This document shows positions 3,978 to 64,000 of a stretch of 64,000 nt of DNA, in pieces. The position numbers and the translations under genes were made by a program. The notes beneath the pieces are model-generated. The model saw only the letters and a program-made list of their open reading frames with translations. It made no database searches and was not told the DNA's origin. Source of the DNA: an uncultured Candidatus Saccharibacteria bacterium (GTDB lineage: Bacteria; Patescibacteriota; Minisyncoccia; Phycocordibacterales; Phycocordibacteraceae). The stretch spans positions 104,856 through 168,855 of the forward strand of contig CAYSUL010000001.1 in assembly GCA_964434255.1 (NCBI GenBank), written 5' to 3'. Every line of letters begins with the position of its first letter. Position 1 is the first letter of the stretch.

Positions 3978-6272
3978 CTAGAGCGTAACGGCCTTTAATC
4001 GAAGCGAATTGAGCACCACCGACACGCTCGAGAGCGCCATCGCGAGCCCCGCGATGACCGGGGACAAGAGTATCCCGAAGAACGGAAACAGGATGCCGGC
4101 AGCGATAGGAATACCGACGAGGTTGTAGAAGAATGCCCAGAACAGGTTCTGCTTGATGCCGCGCATCGTGAGGCGCGAGAGCTTTATGGCCTTCACAAGC
4201 TTCCCGATATCGCCTCCAAGGAGCGTGATCCCGGCCGTTTCTATCGCAACGTCCGTGCCCGTGCCCCTGGCCCTGCCTACAGCCGCTTGCGCGAGCGCCG
4301 GGGCATCGTTGCCGCCATCGCCCGCCATGGCCACGACATCCCCCTTCGCCTGGGTCCCCCGTAACGCTTCGAGCTTCACGTCGGTCCGGACTTCGGCCCC
4401 CGCCCCCTCCAGTCCCAACTCTCGGGCGAAAGCCGCTGCCGTTTGTTTATTATCGCCGGTAAGCATGACTATCGTGATGCCCATATGGTGCAGCGCCGCC
4501 ACTGCCGCTACGGACTCGGGCTTTATCGCGTCTGCGACGAGCACCAGAGCGATTATCTCTTTTTTGGTCGCGAGAACGATCGGCGTCCGTCCTTTAGCCG
4601 TATGCATCGCGAGCGAGTCCGTATCGAGCGGAAGCTTGAGATCACCGATGAGCTTCGTATTGCCCGCGAAGTATTCCGTTCCCTCCACGAGAGCTCGGAC
4701 CCCCTTCCCTTGGATGACTTCGAACCGCTCCGTCCGCACGGGCTCGACCGAGCGCTCGTGCGCATACGCGAGGACAGCCGTTGCGACCGGGTGCTCGGAC
4801 TTCTGCTCAAGCGAGGCGAGTATCCGTAGCACGTCCGTCTCGGTATGGTTCCCGTACGCCTCCACCACGACCACTTCGGGCTTTCCCTTCGTGATCGTGC
4901 CGGTCTTATCGACAACGATAGTATCCACCTCCTGGAGCTTCTGGAGCGTCGCGGCGTCCTTGATGAGGATGCCCTCCTGCGCTCCCTTGCCCACGCCCAC
5001 GATAACGGCGATAGGCGTCGCGAGCCCGAGCGCGCACGGGCACGCAATGACGAGGATGCCGACGAAGGACGTAAGGCCGAGCGAGAGCGCTGCAGCGAAC
5101 CCGAGCGCGGGTATGCCAAGGACAAGCCATGCCGCAAGTACGAGCACCGCGAATACGAGCACGATCGGGACGAAGACGCTCGAGAGCTTGTCGGCGAGCC
5201 CCTGTATAGGCGCCTTGCTGCCCTGCGCTTCGCCTACCATCCGTATGATGCTTGCAAGCAGGGTTTCAGAACCGACCTTCGTCGCCTTGAATATGAAATG
5301 GCCGTTCGTGTTTAGCGTGCCTGCCACGACGGTATCTCCCGGGTTTTTCTCCGCCGGCATCGGCTCGCCCGTGACCATGGACTCGTCTACGTACGAACTT
5401 CCTTCGGTGAGCACGCCGTCGACCGGAATCTTCCCGCCGGGCCGCACGACGACGAGGTCGCCATGCGTCACCTGGTCTACTGGAACGGACACCTCCTTCC
5501 CGTCCCGCATCAGGAATGCGGTCTTCGCCTGGAGGTTGAGCAGTTTCTCGATGGCGTCGCCGGTCTTGAGCTTCGAACGGGCTTCGAGGTATTTGCCGAG
5601 CGCGATGAATGCGATCACGACGATCGTGACGTCGTAGTAGGTTTGGTCGACGTTCAGCAGGCCTCGGAGCGGCTCCTCGAAGGCTGTAAGGATGAAGCTG
5701 TAGAGGAACGCGACCGAGGTGCCGATGCCGATGAGCGTATCCATGTTCGCCTTGCCGTAGCGGACGAAGCGGTAGAAGCCGAGCAGATAGGGCTTCCCTA
5801 CCACCACCATGGTGTAGGTCGCGAAGATAGGCAGGAGATGGTGGAAGAACTCGTACCAGATCAGAGGCATGGCAGCGAGCACACCGAACTCTCCCAGCAT
5901 CTCCCAACCCATGACGAAGACGCTGAACGCAGCGAGCGGCAGCACCGAGAGCACCTTCCATTGCATATCCTTAATCTCTTCGAGCTTCTCCGCCTTCGAT
6001 TGAGTGATGCCGGTGTGCGCGGCATGCTCGTCAGGGGACATATTCATGCTTTCGGCGGTAGGCACGACGAGCGAGTAGCCGAGGGGTTGTATCTGTTTGG
6101 AAAGCTCGTGGGGGTCCGTCTTCGACTCGTCGAACGCAATCTTCGCCGTTTCGGTGCCGTAACTGACTTCGACGTGCTCCACGCCCGCCACCTTCTTGAC
6201 CGCTCGCTCGATGATGCTCGCGCAGGAGGCGCAGTGCATTCCCTTGATCCGGTAGGTCTTATGGTCGCTCAT
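3978..6272 (-). CDS. copA: Copper-translocating P1B-type ATPase
   Basis: N-terminal HMA (GMHCASCA), the membrane CPC motif ([12 protein letters not shown]), DKTGTIT phosphorylation site and the [10 protein letters not shown] hinge. Total length 764 aa. Confidence 0.92.
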
Positions 6273-19548: not shown

Positions 19549-19624
19549 TGGAGCCGAAGGGGAGATTCGAACTCCCGACATTTCGCTTACGATGCGAACG
19601 CTCTACCAACTGAGCTACTTCGGC
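19549..19624 (-). tRNA. tRNA-Thr (anticodon CGU)
   Basis: 76-nt cloverleaf with anticodon loop AUCGUAA and an encoded CCA end. The ORF-track artefact EVAQLVERS is its translation. Confidence 0.85.
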
Positions 19625-19641: not shown

Positions 19642-20112
19642 TCATAATCCCGAATTCTTGCGAGAGCGTTTTCTATAAAGAAGGCCTGCCTCCTTCGCAC
19701 GATTACTGATAGCTCGGTTGGGCCTACCCTTACCTTTGTTTAAGGCAGCAAACGTGGTGGTAAGTGCATCACAATTCGGACAGAGAAGCCGTAGGTTCCC
19801 TTCAGAATTATTCCTCCAATTACCATCAATATGATCCGCCACGAGCGGCGCCTCTCCTGTTTTTGGGTTCTTTTCCGACCATCCGCACACACAGCATTTA
19901 TTTTCGAACTTCTCACGTAAATACCTTTTGACTGTCTTGTTGACCAAGCCAATACTAGTCAGTCCAGCTACTTCCCCAGATTTCCATCGCTTTATAAATA
20001 TCCTGTTTTGATATACGAACTGACACTTATTGCTGCAATATTTATAAGTGGAACGCGGAGTTTCTCCGCCACAAGCGAGACAGGGCGTCCTCGGCTTCTT
20101 CGGGTTCGGCAT
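19642..20112 (-). CDS. HNH endonuclease (low-GC, probably horizontally acquired)
   Basis: HNH motif (ADHIDGNWRNNSEGNLRLLCPNC) with N-terminal CxxC...C zinc-ribbon-like cysteines. Local GC about 45% versus about 60% background. Directly adjacent to tRNA-Thr. Confidence 0.7.
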   Translation of the reverse strand: MPNPKKPRTPCLACGGETPRSTYKYCSNKCQFVYQNRIFIKRWKSGEVAGLTSIGLVNKTVKRYLREKFENKCCVCGWSEKNPKTGEAPLVADHIDGNWRNNSEGNLRLLCPNCDALTTTFAALNKGKGRPNRAISNRAKEAGLLYRKRSRKNSGL

Positions 20113-22120: not shown

Positions 22121-22197
22121 TGGTGCCGACGGCAGGGAACGATCCTGCGACCTTAGCTTTATGAGTGCTACGCTCTAACCAACTGAGCTACGTCGGC
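22121..22197 (-). tRNA. tRNA with CAU anticodon (elongator Met or Ile2/lysidine type), atypical A54/U58 T-loop
   Basis: Cloverleaf with acceptor GCCGACG/CGTCGGC, anticodon loop CUCAUAA and T-arm GCAGG-ATCGTTC-CCTGC. CCA is encoded. No initiator features (G1-C72). Confidence 0.7.
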
Positions 22198-22876
22198 AAT
22201 TCTCGATTTGAGCAATGCGCTCTATATAGGCCAATATCTTGTCTCTAATATCTGTACCCTTTGAGACACGCAATGCCAGAACACCATAATACACATCGCG
22301 GTTCTCGTAAATCTTTTTCCCTCTATCTAGGAAGGTGGTGCGTCGGAATTGACTAATCGGAATATCGAGAGCCTTGCTCCAAAACCGTAGAATGTCTGTC
22401 TCGCGGTCGCGATGCGTGTCGCTTATGAATATCCGTGGCATGAAACGAGACTTCTCCACCTCGAGACATTCCATGAACCAACGACTCATGAGTTGAATGA
22501 CCCGTGGGTCTGAATTTATCAGAGCGAGCGACCCAGAGTTCGATTTAACGCCCTCTCCCCAGTACAAGCCTATCCCGATTAGGAACAGCTCCCTATCCGT
22601 AAGATCAGGCAGAATGTTGATAGCTTCTTCCTGCGCGACTTTCAGACGATTCGATCGCTTCATTCTATTCATCTCAGCCCCAATCATCCGTCCGCGATGG
22701 CCTGCCACTATCTGTTTCGCATGAAGTACCTCCTTTTGCTCCGGTGTTAACTCGATATCTCGAAGCCACAAACTGACCGTGCTGGGAGCGATTTTTATCG
22801 CCCGGCCTATTTCCTTAACGCTCATCCCTTTCCGCCTCAGTTCGATAGCCCTTCGTTTCTCCTCTGGTTTAGCCAT
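22175..22876 (-). CDS. HTH domain protein with LAGLIDADG-like (GLYWGEG) motif; putative free-standing homing endonuclease (paralog of 59121..59795)
   Basis: N-terminal HTH (MSVKEIGRAIKIAPSTVSLWL) followed by FLIGIGLYWGEGVKS, resembling the LAGLIDADG block (cf. GLWIGDG). Low local GC. Its 3' end overlaps the first 23 nt of the downstream tRNA. Confidence 0.45.
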   Translation of the reverse strand: MAKPEEKRRAIELRRKGMSVKEIGRAIKIAPSTVSLWLRDIELTPEQKEVLHAKQIVAGHRGRMIGAEMNRMKRSNRLKVAQEEAINILPDLTDRELFLIGIGLYWGEGVKSNSGSLALINSDPRVIQLMSRWFMECLEVEKSRFMPRIFISDTHRDRETDILRFWSKALDIPISQFRRTTFLDRGKKIYENRDVYYGVLALRVSKGTDIRDKILAYIERIAQIENCRRSSVG

Positions 22877-23031
22877 ATGTATCGCTATCATTTTCCTGCA
22901 GGCCTCATCATCATTTCCTGGAATTTATATAAAGGAAATCTGGAATAGTAATCGTCTCGCTATGCCCACCACACCTCTTTCCTTCGTCCCATTCGCGAAG
23001 CTCCCTGTTACAATCCACTCAACATAGCCGC

Positions 23032-59001: not shown

Positions 59002-59034
59002 CTCAGGCGCTCGCGCCTGAGTCGTTTCCTTTTG
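59002..59034 (+). terminator. Rho-independent terminator (CTCAGGCG-CTCG-CGCCTGAG + TCGTTTCCTTTT)
   Basis: 8-bp G/C stem with a tetraloop and T-rich tail. Confidence 0.5.
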
Positions 59035-59108
59035 TGCGCCCGGCAGGGCACGATCCTGCGACCCCCCGGATATAAGCCGGGTGCTCTGACCAACTGAGCT
59101 ACGGGCGC
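59035..59108 (-). tRNA. tRNA-Ile (anticodon UAU), atypical A54/U58 T-loop
   Basis: Acceptor GCGCCCG/CGGGCGC, anticodon stem CCCGG/CCGGG with loop CUUAUAU. The D-arm and T-arm (GCAGG-ATCGTGC-CCTGC) are nearly identical to the CAU tRNA at 22121..22197. Confidence 0.65.
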
Positions 59109-59120
59109 TCCATCATGGAA

Positions 59121-59795
59121 TCACGGAGGTAAGTTCCGTGCAAATGTATCGCGAATACTTTCGAGGCATGCGTGCACATATTCGGATACATCGCGATTCC
59201 CATAGAGGATATTGCAGGTTCCATGAGTGAACCGTTGCGTGTAGGTAAGTCCGCTTCGGCTCGATGACTTGATGTATGGTTTTCGGAAAGCCGTTCTCGG
59301 CAGATCTAGTACCTCTGACCAATAATTCAATTCGGCTTCCGCATCCATGTCCTGATAAAGATGTATGCACACCTTCAATTTCTCTCTCGGCACGCCGAAC
59401 ATTTCCAGCCATTTGATAAAGAAGATCAATACCGCGGGATCCGTGTTCGATATAGCAGTAAGAGTATTCTGAGTCTTACTCCCTTCACCCCAATATAGAA
59501 ACAGGCCCGCTATGAACATTTCACGTTCGGACAGTGTAGAGACATCTTTCGCTGCGCGTTCATAGACTCCCTCAAGTCGTGTGCGTTTCTTCAGCGCCTT
59601 CGTCTCTCGACACTTCTCAATCCTGCGCTCACTCCATCCACGCAGCTCGTTGATTCGCTCTCGAGAAAGCGGATAGTCCTGCAACCAGATACTTAGTGTC
59701 CCCTTACTTACACCAAGCGCCGCTTTTATCTGGCTGTAGCTCATCTGCTGCATCCGCATTTCAAGCGCTCGCGCCTTTAATTCTCGTTTAGCCAT
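59121..59795 (-). CDS. HTH domain protein with LAGLIDADG-like (GLFLYWGEG) motif; putative homing endonuclease (paralog of 22175..22876)
   Basis: Collinear similarity to the 22175..22876 product (MAKxE..., LSIWLQD, FIAGLFLYWGEGSK, ISNTDP, WSEVLDLP). Low GC. Located 13 nt upstream of tRNA-Ile(UAU). Confidence 0.45.
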   Translation of the reverse strand: MAKRELKARALEMRMQQMSYSQIKAALGVSKGTLSIWLQDYPLSRERINELRGWSERRIEKCRETKALKKRTRLEGVYERAAKDVSTLSEREMFIAGLFLYWGEGSKTQNTLTAISNTDPAVLIFFIKWLEMFGVPREKLKVCIHLYQDMDAEAELNYWSEVLDLPRTAFRKPYIKSSSRSGLTYTQRFTHGTCNILYGNRDVSEYVHACLESIRDTFARNLPP

Positions 59796-59914
59796 AGTAC
59801 TTAGGAGTAGTGCACACAAAGTACTAACTCCTAGTTCAAATATTCCTGGAGAAATAATAGGGGAAAGCTGAAAACCGCCGAGACATATGTCTCGGCGGTT
59901 TTCATGTGAGTTAC

Positions 59915-61888
59915 CTAAATGTCTATCTTCGGCGACTCCTCGTCCTCTTTCGTCTTGGGTGTTATGCCGTTCGCAATGAGGAGCTTCTCGAATTCCTCGC
60001 GTTCGAGCGTCTCCACTTCGACGAGCTTCTCCGCGATGGCGTCGAGTGCCTTGCGATGCTCGGTGAGGACACGCCGCGCGCTTTCTTTCGCCTCTTCGAT
60101 GATACGGGTGACCTCAGCATCTATCGTCGCGGACACGTTCTGCGAGTAGATAGCGTCGCTATGGGCGCGGTCTGCGGCGAACGCGACCGGCCCTATCTTA
60201 TCCGACATGCCGTAGCGGGCGACCATGTCGCGCGCGAGTCCCACGACCACCGCAAGGTCGTTGGATGGTCCTGTCGTGAGGTCATCGAATACCATCTCTT
60301 CCGCGACATAACCGCCGAGCGTTGCGGCAATGTCGTCGAGGAATTCTTTCTTCGACTGCATTCTCCTGTCCTCGAACGGAAGCTTGAGCGTGTAGCCGCC
60401 TGCGCGTCCGCGACTGATGATGGAAATCTTGTGCACTGGGTCAGCGTACGGAAGCACCGACGAGACAAGCGCGTGACCTCCTTCGTGGTATGCGGTGACG
60501 AGCTTCTCCTTCTTCGAGAGAAGGTGGCTCTTTCGTTCGGGCCCGAGCATCACCTTCTCGATGGAGCGGATGAGGTCGTACTGCGTTATCTCCTTGCGGT
60601 TCTCGCGTGCAGCCAGGATTGCGCCCTCGTTCATGAGCGAGTAGAGCTCAGCGCCCGAGAAGCCTGGCGTGCGTTCCGCGATGACTTCAAGGTTCACGTC
60701 AGGACCGAACGGCTTCTTGCGGGAATGCACGGAAAGTATCGCGAGACGGTCCTTGCGATCCGGAAGATCGAGCATGACGCGCCTATCGAAGCGACCAGGA
60801 CGAAGGAGCGCTGGGTCGAGCACATCAGGACGGTTGGTTGCCGCGAGGATGATGACTTTCTCGTTCGGATCGAATCCATCCATCTCGACGAGTATCTGGT
60901 TCAACGTCTGCTCGCGCTCGTCGTTGCCGCCGCCAACACCCGTGCCACGCACGCGACCTACCGCGTCTATCTCATCCACGAAGATGATTGCCGGAGCGAC
61001 CTTCTTCGCCATGTTGAAGAGGTCGCGCACACGTGACGCCCCGACTCCCACGAACATCTCCACGAACTCGGAGCCCGAGATGGAGAAGAACGGTACGCCT
61101 GCCTCGCCCGCAACAGCGCGCGCAAGCATCGTCTTTCCCGTTCCTGGGGCGCCCATGAGAAGAATGCCCTTCGGGATGCGTGCACCTATATCGAGGAACT
61201 TCTTCGGGTTCTTGAGGAAGTCCACGACTTCCATGAGCTCTTCCTTCGCCTCCTTCGCGCCTGCGACGTCTGCGAACAATATGCGCTGCGTCGTATCAGC
61301 CGGGTCTATCATCTTCGCCTTGGACTGACCGAAACTGAACGCTTGCATGCCCGCTCCGCGCACCTGGCGCGTGAGGAACCAGAAGAGGATAGCGAGGAAG
61401 AGGATGGGAAGAAGTATCGGCGCGAGGTTGAAGAACCAATACTTGAAGCCCGACTCCGTCGCGATGGTTATCTGCGTACGAGTGAGCTCCTCTGGAGTGA
61501 CGCCGTATACTGCGAGCGTCTCGGGAAGTCCCTGATCCGGGTCCTTCATCGACTTCTTCTCCGTGCCGTCCGCGTACGTGAGCAGAAGCTCGTTCCCTTC
61601 TATCTTCACGACGGTGAGCGAGCCCGCCTTCACGTCCTGTGCTACCTGCGAGAGCGCTATCTCCTCCTTCGCCTTATCTCCTCCGAACAAAAGGGAGAAG
61701 ATGCTCATTAAGAGAAGGAACACGAGCACCGTCGAAAGGAGGTTGCCCATGAAGCCTGGGGTGCCAGGCGTGAGGAAATTGCGCGGGCCCTTGCCCTTGC
61801 CTGGTTTCTTGCCGCTCCCCTTCTTTGCCGATCCACCAGTCGGTGGAGTATTCGGCGAGGCTTTCTTGTTTGGGGTGATGGATGCCAT
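59915..61888 (-). CDS. ftsH: ATP-dependent zinc metalloprotease FtsH
   Basis: Two N-terminal TM helices, AAA module ([11 protein letters not shown]) and the HEGGH zinc site. 657 aa. Confidence 0.92.
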
Positions 61889-61932
61889 TTTTTGAGCTTA
61901 CTTCCCGACACTATACAATAAGGCGAATTGCT

Positions 61933-62802
61933 ATGGAAACGATGAAGAGAGAGCCTATCGCCATCATCACATCAGGTGGCGGCATGAAATGCGCGTATTC
62001 AGCGGGCGCTCTCGTCGCGCTCGCGAAAGAACTGAAGCTCACCTCGCCCGACATCTTCGTCTCGGCATCGGGCTCGGTGGGCGCCATGTTCTACTACCTC
62101 GCCGGCCAGTACGACGACATAGAGAAAGCGTGGACGCGGTATCTTCCCTCTCCGCAGTTCATCCGGTACGCACCATTCCCTGCGCTCCGAATCAATTACA
62201 TGGTCGATACCGTCCTCAAGCAATATCTCCCGCTCGATGTCGAGAAGGCGGAAGCGAGCAAGACGAAGTTCCTCGTGCCAGTCACCGATATACGCTCCGG
62301 CGATACACGCTTCATCGGCAATGACCTCTGGCTCAACCCGTACGAAGTGATGCGTGCCGCCACCGCGATACCGCTTCTGTATAACGGGCATGTGAATCTG
62401 GGCAGTCACAGCTATCTCGATGGCGATTTCACGACCGGTATCGCCGACCTCATCACGGCCGCCATCAACGCCGGAGCGAAGCGCATCGTCTGCATCACGA
62501 ACACCGACGCGCCCACGAAGGTGGGCAAGGCCATCCTTCGGGTATATGGAGCGCTTCTCTCTCCGGGGCTGCGCCGTGCGCTCCTGCGCGATATGGCGAT
62601 GACGCAGGATATCGAATGGCCCGGCGGCATCAAGTTCTCGCTCATCTCCCCCACCTCTCCGCTCCCGACCGTGCTGTATAGCAGGGAGCGCAGGAAGGTG
62701 GTCGAGGCGTTCACGATGGGATACGAGGACTTGCTCGCGAAGCGCGAGGAGATAGAGGAGCTATTCGGTGCCGAGCCCACTCGCGATACAGTATCGGTAT
62801 GA
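61933..62802 (+). CDS. Patatin-like phospholipase family protein
   Basis: Oxyanion GGGMKCAYSAG and nucleophile elbow (SASGSVGA), with a downstream Asp in a DGG/DGD context. Confidence 0.5.
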   Translation: METMKREPIAIITSGGGMKCAYSAGALVALAKELKLTSPDIFVSASGSVGAMFYYLAGQYDDIEKAWTRYLPSPQFIRYAPFPALRINYMVDTVLKQYLPLDVEKAEASKTKFLVPVTDIRSGDTRFIGNDLWLNPYEVMRAATAIPLLYNGHVNLGSHSYLDGDFTTGIADLITAAINAGAKRIVCITNTDAPTKVGKAILRVYGALLSPGLRRALLRDMAMTQDIEWPGGIKFSLISPTSPLPTVLYSRERRKVVEAFTMGYEDLLAKREEIEELFGAEPTRDTVSV

Positions 62803-63245
62803 GCCTCATACAGAACAAGAAAGCGCACCTGCGGTTCGAGGTACTCGAGTCGTATGTCGCGGGCATGGAGCTTACCGGCGGCGAAGTGAAGAGTTTGCGT
62901 GCTAAGCATGGCTCTCTTGAAGGGGCTCGGGTGATAGTCCGAGGCGGCGAGGCGTACGTGGCCGGCATGACTATTCCCCCATACCAGGTGAAGAACACAC
63001 CCGAGGCGTATGACCCGGAGCACGTGCGCCGCCTGCTCCTTTCCAAGAAGGAAATAAGCGAGCTTTCTGACGCAGAGTCCAAGAAGGGCTTGACAGTAGT
63101 GCCTTTGGAAGTGTATAATAGTGGGAGGTACCTGAAGCTCAAGGTCGCTATCGTGCGCGGCAAAGGAAAAGCCGATAAACGAGAGGACTTGAAGCGAGCG
63201 GACGCCAAGCTCGACATCGAGCGGGCGCTTCGCGGGAAGAAATAA
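62799..63245 (+). CDS. smpB: SsrA-binding protein SmpB
   Basis: 148 aa with conserved SmpB motifs (GxEVKS, basic C-terminal tail). Directly precedes the tmRNA. Confidence 0.85.
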   Translation: MSLIQNKKAHLRFEVLESYVAGMELTGGEVKSLRAKHGSLEGARVIVRGGEAYVAGMTIPPYQVKNTPEAYDPEHVRRLLLSKKEISELSDAESKKGLTVVPLEVYNSGRYLKLKVAIVRGKGKADKREDLKRADAKLDIERALRGKK

Positions 63246-63292
63246 GCGGGCCAGTCGCGTTCCGGACACCATCTCCTGATAGTGTCCGGAAC

Positions 63293-63699
63293 GGGGGTGA
63301 CCGGCTTTGACGGTCTGTACTTTGAGAGACGTGCGACGCGATGGAAGATTGCTGACCATCTAAATCCCGCAATCAACCAATACTTGCAAACAAAACTGTT
63401 GCAAGCGTAAAGTCTCCGTACTTCGGTAAGGAAAGCTTTGCGTTCGCTTACGCGTAAAAGCTTCGCGCTTTCGCCTAAGCGACGTCTTTTTCTCTCGGTT
63501 CTCGTAGCGAGGGGAAGGGGCGGAATCTTCTACGGGATCGGCTCGTGCTCTCCTAGGCACCGAGCTTAAACAACAGGATCAGGAAGGAGCGTTTTCGCTA
63601 GCGTTCTTATTCTCCTTCTGAAGCATCAACACTAGCTATGCGTCGTAGATTCGTCCTCAAAGCCAGATTCGGACCGGAGTTCAACTCTCCGCACCTCCA
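63293..63699 (+). ncRNA. ssrA: tmRNA (SsrA)
   Basis: 5' GGGGGUGACCGGCUUUGACGG resembles the tmRNA 5' end. The 3' tRNA-like T-arm GGAGTTCAACTCTCC is followed by acceptor CACCUCC-A-CC, giving the alanine determinant G3-U70. An internal tag ORF appears to end ...FAFAYA-stop. Located after smpB. Confidence 0.7.
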
Positions 63700-63796
63700 C
63701 CTAGTTTCACTAAAGGCCTCGAAAGAGGCCTTTAGTGTTGGCGTGTCTTGATGGATTGGAGGTTCTAATCTTTCGCAGCAACCTCTAAAAATTCCC

Positions 63797-64000
63797 CTAC
63801 CTCTCAGCCACAAAGATTGCATCCATGCCGTTCCTGAAAATTCGTTCTATCTTCTTAAACTCATACTTTTCTAAGAAAGCTTTTTGTTCACTTTCGGTGA
63901 ATTTAATCTTCTCGTCTTGAAGGTAATGCTTAGTCCATTCTTCTTTGACGTCCGGCCTTCCTATTTCGTCGTACACCTCGAACGCCTCAATCTGCTCCTG
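63797..64000 (-). CDS. Partial CDS (C-terminal 68 codons; runs off window), low-GC, hypothetical
   Basis: Open frame from the window edge to TAG at 63797-63799 (…KIERIFRNGMDAIFVAER*). GC about 40% versus about 60% background. Lies directly 3' of ssrA. Confidence 0.3.
   Translation of the reverse strand, partial: QEQIEAFEVYDEIGRPDVKEEWTKHYLQDEKIKFTESEQKAFLEKYEFKKIERIFRNGMDAIFVAER

Follow-up and report, generated by a model that had tools for sequence, protein, structure and literature searches.

[quoted passage not shown]

The window analysed here, a stretch of 64,000 nt, ends just beyond the tmRNA gene ssrA. Directly 5' of ssrA lies smpB (62799..63245, plus strand), which encodes the 148-aa protein partner of tmRNA; an identical product carries the Pfam domain PF01668 (SmpB). 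The full-length tmRNA gene was located on the plus strand at 63293-63701 by ARAGORN and at 63293-63702 by Rfam, in which model RF00023 was matched over its entire length (model positions 1-374) with 102.7 bits against a gathering score of 47 (E 5e-39). ARAGORN places the tag ORF at 63386-63457, also on the plus strand, and reads the tag as ANKTVASVKSPYFGKESFAFAYA followed by a stop codon. The acceptor stem, read from the sequence, pairs GGGGGUG with CACCUCC, which sets a U opposite G3 and gives the G3-U70 pair. At the 3' end (...CACCTCC-A-CC, then T) the discriminator A and the CC are encoded and the final A of the CCA is not. All class features of a tmRNA are present: a tRNA-Ala-like acceptor with G3-U70, a T-arm, and an internal tag ORF with a stop codon. 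An earlier note on this DNA had described a tmRNA with G3-U70 and an internal tag ORF behind smpB, and had proposed RF00023 as the check on its ends and tag. ARAGORN, the full-model Rfam match and the acceptor pairing agree with that description, and the start at 63293 is exact in both programs; the gene is real, and only its length changes, from 400 nt to 409-410 nt.

Several further features of this gene pair were observed. The tag peptide is long, at 23 aa (63386-63457), and its motif VKSPYFG...DFAFAYA is common to relatives, appearing as AKNTAQGVKSPYFGMSDFAFAYARA in locus L030 and as ANTSNASVKSPYFGAKDFAFAYA in L036. Within the smpB coding region, at 63090-63119, there is a perfect sigma-70 consensus (TTGACA, 18 nt, TATAAT; 12/12 matches) that lies ~175 nt 5' of the tmRNA start and could be the ssrA promoter. 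A 30-nt inverted repeat with 80% complementarity and arms 4 nt apart occupies 63244-63307, starting in the smpB stop codon (63243-63245) and ending just inside the 5' end of ssrA. Pairing is best in GTTCCGGACAC...GTGTCCGGAAC, and the repeat may be a terminator or a processing hairpin.

The GC content is ~0.58 upstream of ssrA, 0.51-0.53 within it and 0.42 at 63700-63999, against a mean of 0.574 for the 64-kb window. A 17-nt sequence, ACCTCCACCTAGTTTCA, made up of the last 10 nt of ssrA and the following 7 nt (63693..63709, plus strand), forms the attL core. A second, exact copy lies 983 bp downstream on the same strand, at an extrapolated position of 64676-64692, outside the window. In L001, a contig that continues past the window end, these are the two exact copies found (2787 and 3770), with 0.02 copies expected by chance, and they are embedded in a 102-nt direct repeat (D1) of 74% identity with the same spacing. 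The ~92 nt that follow ssrA (63703..63794, plus strand; copy 1 of D1) constitute a left arm belonging to the insert. This arm contains a terminator-like hairpin at 63708-63737, with a 13-bp stem and a GAAA loop, and a T-arm-like motif, GGAGGTTCTAATCT, at 63758-63771, which puts the sequence GAGGTTCTAA 58 nt past the CCAC of ssrA. The arm 3' of the second core likewise has the +58 motif; it may be the flank that ssrA had at first or, just as well, the left arm of an element that is older and has decayed.

The remainder of the window is taken up by the 3' part of a gene for a class I SAM-dependent methyltransferase (63797..64000, minus strand), its frame being open from 64000 to the stop codon at 63797. 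The full gene encodes 235 aa and extends over an extrapolated 63797-64504 on the minus strand (L001 2891-3598), with matches to Pfam Methyltransf_25/11/12/31. It is convergent with ssrA and is the sole gene between the two core copies, where a single ORF was found and Pfam detected methyltransferase domains only. At ~0.43, the GC content of the gene lies 15 GC points under that of the host; the insert as a whole has 0.43 against 0.56 in the gene that follows.

Sequence beyond the window was obtained from contigs of three groundwater runs (L001, L002 and L003), which were reached through the exact SmpB protein and are 100% identical to the window over 3,094, 2,948 and 2,031 nt, respectively. 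L001 matches window positions 60907-64000 at 100% (window position = L001 position + 60906) and reaches 8.6 kb past the window end. The three independent assemblies concur, and the downstream order in L001 runs from ssrA through the methyltransferase gene, a gene for an Ada-like AraC/MGMT protein (GC 0.56) and three small ORFs to infC, rpmI and rplT, followed by an RNase-J-like gene, ndk, map and adk. The conserved infC-rpmI-rplT backbone starts 3.2 kb 3' of ssrA. Neither gene content nor tblastn revealed an integrase or any other kind of recombinase in the 64-kb window or in the 8.9 kb that follow it. In tblastn searches, two large serine recombinases matched only in the ssrA antisense region, and an E. 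coli XerD probe (a weak test) gave no match.

[quoted passage not shown] The fall from 0.58 to 0.42 is borne out by measurement, the partial gene is the C-terminus of the 235-aa methyltransferase with its stop codon at 63797, and the repeat exists as the exact 17-nt copy 983 bp away. The island itself stands in part: foreign DNA does begin at the ssrA 3' end, an att-like repeat is present and relatives have other genes at this place, but the 8.9 kb downstream yielded no integrase, the next gene already has a GC content of 0.56, and no island or prophage of the usual size lies here.

The boundary of the insert is sharply drawn by a sister strain from Hainich well H51 (L004/L029). L001 and L004 are 99.3% identical upstream and 100% identical across ssrA (408 nt), after which identity falls to 75% over the next 116 nt and then to 49%, which is chance level; the left arm of the window is 75% identical to the L004 arm, against 100% for ssrA. 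At the position of the insert, L004/L029 carries a HAD hydrolase gene and a DUF3800 gene, followed by a junction, an SRPBCC gene, an RHH/RelE-like pair and the same Ada-like gene. Locus L025 is 92.8% identical to L001 upstream, and its similarity ends exactly at ...CCAC, to be regained at the Ada-like gene (85%) and infC (95%); five unrelated genes lie between CCAC and the Ada-like gene. Clade-wide, the frame formed by smpB-ssrA on one side and infC-rpmI-rplT on the other encloses a variable stretch of 1.4-6 kb. The junction predicted for an empty site is ...CGCACCTCCAC + CTAGTTTCAGGAAAAGCCCCAGACGGGGC and that for a circle ...GGATAACAACCTCCAC + CTAGTTTCACTAAAGGCCTCGAAAGAGGCC; neither an empty site nor a circular junction was seen in the window strain. 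A NUDIX gene located between the Ada-like gene and a small membrane ORF is present in the sister strain (L029 3797-4210) and absent from the window strain (L001 4811-4853), and gene-sized differences therefore extend past the att-bounded cassette.

Immediately left of the second core is a sequence of ~150 nt, designated J (L001 3625-3778), which is 80-89% identical among L001, L004/L029, L014, L015 (two copies), L023 and L028. The genomes that bear it differ by up to 10 GC points and by ~25% in SmpB sequence, and each copy ends in CCAC. When metagenome contigs were scanned for a J pattern, only two loci came up, L028 and L029. The last ~35 nt of J contain T-arm-like GAGGTTCT... and then AACCTCCACC, a likeness to ssrA that was judged by eye in the alignment. 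Each CCAC is followed by an arm that opens with a strong hairpin. Of the arms behind J, 5/15 are at least 80% identical to the post-ssrA arm of another genome, against a median of 49% for all pairs of ssrA flanks. Because post-J arms match the post-ssrA arms of other genomes, the pairing of left partner (ssrA or J) with right arm has been reshuffled at CCAC.

Other identities for J were tried and rejected. In an iterated nhmmer profile J resembled the final 145 nt of ssrA moved to another place, but when pairwise local alignments were set against shuffles, nothing upstream of the final ~35 nt was significantly similar. A structured RNA is contradicted by the absence of an Rfam match, by folding no better than that of shuffled sequence on either strand (z-scores -0.7 and -0.3), and by a covariation term of -0.77 with 3/27 pairs compensated. 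As for a small ORF, a substitution between aligned copies removes the sole plausible start codon, as read from the alignment.

The same cassette was encountered in other genomes. The best match to the window left arm, 95% over 60 nt, lies behind a J junction in L033 and not behind another ssrA. There the arm precedes a methyltransferase gene (90% amino-acid identity) and a Fic gene, and these are followed by J at 89%; the methyltransferase gene is only 79% identical at the DNA level, and the cassette ends thus outdo the gene in conservation (95% and 89% versus 79%). In L046 and L047 the order arm-methyltransferase-J occurs again, behind yet another cassette, at a different array position. Other Patescibacteria have homologues of the methyltransferase with 72-90% identity, either between ssrA and infC or in cassettes delimited by J; among them are L030 and L031, whose homologues (72-77%) lie within the ssrA-infC interval in genomes of ~0.45-0.50 GC. 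An origin of the methyltransferase cassette in a lower-GC relative would fit the composition and these homologies.

Cargo of other kinds was also noted in these arrays. The DUF3800 protein of the sister strain (L004 2223-2981) matches PADLOC PDC-M04A (1e-43), the Fic protein (L033 973-2073) matches SoFic (4e-105), and a SocA/Panacea protein (L015 4751-5698) is encoded beside a RelE-like match that is weak (E 0.004, under the Pfam cut-off). These are candidate defence and toxin-antitoxin genes. Between the RelE-like/Panacea pair and a HAD gene, L015 has a fragment of left arm (5796-5848) that includes the GAGGTTCTAA part and is without core or J; it looks like the remnant of two cassettes fused by loss of the junction.

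In related groundwater Patescibacteria, a gene for a large serine recombinase of 574-588 aa abuts ssrA, in convergent orientation, in L027, L039, L042, L043 and L044/L045, three of these five loci having been reached via recombinase homology alone. The proteins have the Pfam domains Resolvase, Recombinase and Zn_ribbon_recom; their NCBIfam scores are 75.6 bits for CcrB and 74 bits for CcrC, versus a cut-off of 900, and 114 for XisF, versus 375. The recombinase family numbers 283 members at E<=1e-60, and among the organism-identifying names listed almost all are Patescibacteria lineages. The elements are ~9 kb in size and also encode Phage_rep_O, helix-turn-helix, and helicase or primase proteins. 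Scans of viral contigs for a free or phage form of the element gave only recombinases of 20-22% identity and no J, and a limited literature search found no published account of ssrA-specific serine-recombinase elements in Patescibacteria.

Both ends of the window insert recur in these elements. The sequence GAGGTTCTAA stands at +57/58 from CCAC in 5/5 serine-recombinase elements, as in the window left arm, and is absent from ~20 other ssrA flanks examined. In L042, a single contig contains ssrA, the recombinase gene, replication genes and then a full-length J (112.7 bits), while in L039 a recombinase element of ~8.9 kb is followed by a J-tail core, a 0.57-kb GNAT cassette and another J-tail core. 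Since the +57/58 motif and J are both found in recombinase elements, both arm types of the window belong to serine-recombinase elements. The possibility that GAGGTTCTAA is a relic of sequence coding for the recombinase C-terminus was rejected, as our own translation places the motif in different reading frames in L027 and L039; it is therefore conserved as DNA and not as protein.

The recombinase ORFs of L027 (3872-5635) and L039 (10808-12544) cross attL into the antisense strand of ssrA, from which the C-terminal ~30 residues (...WRCGELNSGPNLALR...) are read; the protein would therefore have one C-terminus when the element is integrated and another when it is excised. At L039 10780-10902 ssrA-like sequence is present and no tmRNA is called by ARAGORN. 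It has the T-arm CCGGGGTCCAATTCCCCG, with a changed T-loop and a compensated stem.

The low-GC DNA behind ssrA is probably a miniature integrative element of ~983 bp, core to core, which has no integrase, carries a single gene for a SAM-dependent methyltransferase, and derives from serine-recombinase ssrA islands in the manner of a cis-mobilizable element. Its layout would run from the ssrA 3' end, which provides the core, through the ~92-nt left arm, the methyltransferase gene convergent with ssrA and the ~150-nt J to the second core. The proposed element family, of the Parcubacteria/Paceibacterota type within the Patescibacteria, would target ssrA, its complete members carrying the recombinase gene beside the left arm, and members would stack in tandem behind the gene. 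Here a serine-recombinase element, or a cassette riding along with one, would have recombined with the last 3' bases of ssrA, at CCAC and within the un-encoded CCA positions; as divergence begins within the CCA positions, the mature tmRNA is left unchanged, and the left arm supplies a new hairpin 3' of ssrA. Catalysis by a serine recombinase and a crossover at exactly this position are both presumed, and the cassette may still be able to move. The copy in the window would be one without a recombinase, like the cis-mobilizable elements beside Dehalococcoides ssrA islands. In keeping with such an element, its ends are of the attL/attR type, the left arm having the +57/58 GAGGTTCTAA layout and J being also the end of the complete element in L042, and neither an integrase nor transfer genes of its own occur between the cores. 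Against this explanation, no recombinase was detected in the window or in 8.9 kb downstream, and no empty site or circle was seen that would speak for present mobility. Large serine recombinases normally need short att sites only; arms as long (92-150 nt) and as conserved as these are more usual for tyrosine integrases, so that J has no obvious role under a serine-recombinase model.

Long arms of this sort could also act as homology arms, and the locus might instead be a hot spot of homologous recombination at which cassettes brought in by DNA uptake replace one another through crossovers in ssrA on one side and J or the backbone genes on the other, with no site-specific recombination in the lineage. 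Homologous recombination anchored in the conserved ssrA would produce a visible break at the ssrA 3' end too, given that the gene is 100% identical between the strains and any internal crossover appears as a break at its end. The absence of a local integrase is as expected from such exchange, as is the mosaic of gene-sized differences in the ssrA-infC interval, where L029 has SRPBCC, toxin-antitoxin and NUDIX genes that L001 lacks. It is nevertheless an unlikely account of the locus, because an exact 17-nt direct repeat flanks the insert, the same right-hand arms occur behind ssrA or J in different genomes and are always joined at CCAC, and complete serine-recombinase elements have both arm types. 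Homologous recombination may be the route by which individual cassettes spread, including the acquisition here; the origin of the architecture is not explained by it. The version given in the earlier note, a conventional island or prophage at ssrA with its own integrase and reaching well past the window, would account for a GC drop that starts at the ssrA 3' end and has a parallel in the ~9 kb elements with serine recombinase, Phage_rep_O and helix-turn-helix genes at ssrA in relatives. With the second core 983 bp downstream, one gene inside, GC recovering at the next gene, infC-rpmI-rplT at 3.2 kb and no recombinase in 8.9 kb, and with the independent assemblies L001, L002 and L003 in agreement, it is highly improbable; the flanking contigs contradict it unless they are misassembled.

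The most improbable of the readings considered is that nothing was inserted, the methyltransferase gene being an ordinary low-GC resident and the hairpin the ssrA terminator. Homologues of the gene do lie in the ssrA-infC interval of L030 and L031, and in L030 the GC content of the gene equals that of the genome, ~0.45; here, however, the gene is missing at this position in L025 and in the sister strain, which is 99% identical; it has direct repeats on both sides, stands 15 GC points under its host and is less well conserved than its own ends. Cassettes of one or two genes, mostly in one orientation and with a conserved junction between them, recall an integron-like platform, in which a tyrosine integrase of the IntI type would capture cassettes and J would be a folded, attC-like site. 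There is very little to be said for this, given that J shows no folding signal, that the recombinase co-occurring with the arms is of the serine type, and that tblastn with the XerD probe, a weak test, detected no tyrosine recombinase in L001-L039. Our preferred reading of a miniature element derived from serine-recombinase islands could be widened, tentatively, to an ssrA-anchored gene-capture platform in Patescibacteria of this clade, in which cassettes of 0.6-2 kb, each with its own hairpin and delimited by a junction of ~250 bp (J, core, arm), would be shuffled in trans by large serine recombinases; such a platform is possible rather than probable.

The closest described system is that of the Dehalococcoides ssrA islands (ssrA-GIs), which occur in tandem, are bounded by 20-bp ssrA repeats, and encode, beside attL on the reverse strand, a 540-590-aa serine recombinase; units without the integration module have been interpreted as cis-mobilizable elements (McMurdie et al. 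2011; PMC3146451). The Patescibacteria loci resemble them in having tandem arrays 3' of ssrA, some units without an integration module, low GC, broken synteny between strains and, in the relatives, a serine recombinase on the reverse strand directly at attL. The window unit has terminal repeats of the ssrA kind (the exact 17-nt repeat and the 102-nt repeat of 74% identity), and broken synteny and deviant composition coincide in it, L004/L029 and L025 differing from CCAC on and GC being 0.43 versus 0.57-0.58. Beside attL the window encodes no serine recombinase; L027, L039, L042, L043 and L044 have one there. Unlike the Dehalococcoides islands, which have their junction in the T-loop, the units described here belong to the phylum Patescibacteria, have an inferred junction at the extreme 3' end, CCAC, and are far smaller, at 0.6-2 kb with one or two genes. 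They also differ in their long conserved arms (J ~150 nt, left arm ~92 nt), and no DsiA, RecF or ParB-type module was seen. The recombinase falls far under the NCBIfam CcrB cut-off (75.6 versus 900 bits).

Genomic islands and prophages reportedly integrate at tRNA and tmRNA genes in general, in what Williams is said to have termed 'traffic at the tmRNA gene' (reference 24 of PMC3146451). Like such insertions, the one described here has the ssrA 3' end as its target, keeps the gene intact, has a direct repeat at the far end, and uses a site that is reused; unlike the classic tmRNA islands, which measure 10-100 kb and have their own, usually tyrosine, integrase, it consists of one gene and has no integrase. 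The arrays share with integron cassettes the promoter-poor units of one or two genes and conserved junctions resembling recombination sites. They differ from integrons in that no IntI, attI or Pc was found (no XerD-like match was obtained with the weak probe), in that J is not attC-like in folding, and in having an RNA gene as the anchor of the array and a recombinase of the serine type. With SCCmec and CcrAB they share large serine recombinases of the same broad group, a conserved housekeeping gene whose 3' end is the target, and composite tandem arrays that include recombinase-less units; there, however, the target is orfX/rlmH rather than ssrA, SCCmec is much larger, and the CcrB and CcrC cut-offs are not reached here.

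Integration at ssrA is textbook knowledge, and the finding itself is therefore unsurprising. Its value lies in a concrete, testable view of how accessory genes are gained and lost in the very small genomes of Patescibacteria: one fixed slot, from ssrA to infC, is filled by units of one or two genes with conserved ends, a specific family of serine recombinases is associated with it, and the att sites can be predicted to the base. If active, the recombinases and their ssrA-type sites could become integration tools for a phylum that has almost none. Were the gene-capture platform real, it would be a serine-recombinase counterpart of the integron in minimal-genome bacteria.

Elsewhere in the window, other low-GC ORFs adjoin tRNA genes. 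Two paralogous ORFs on the minus strand, 59121-59819 and 22175-22891, are 33% identical (E 2e-27; regions 59034-59819 and 22121-22891), and both have a G(L/I)xLYWGEG motif. The former, which has an HTH_23 domain, lies directly 5' of tRNA-Ile(UAU), a pairing kept in L036 and L039, and the latter lies directly 5' of tRNA-Met. Both may be homing-endonuclease-like; Pfam gave the HTH domain only. A 156-aa low-GC ORF (19642-20112, minus strand), with the apparent HNH-like motifs HIDGNWRNN and CPNCD, adjoins tRNA-Thr (19549-19624).
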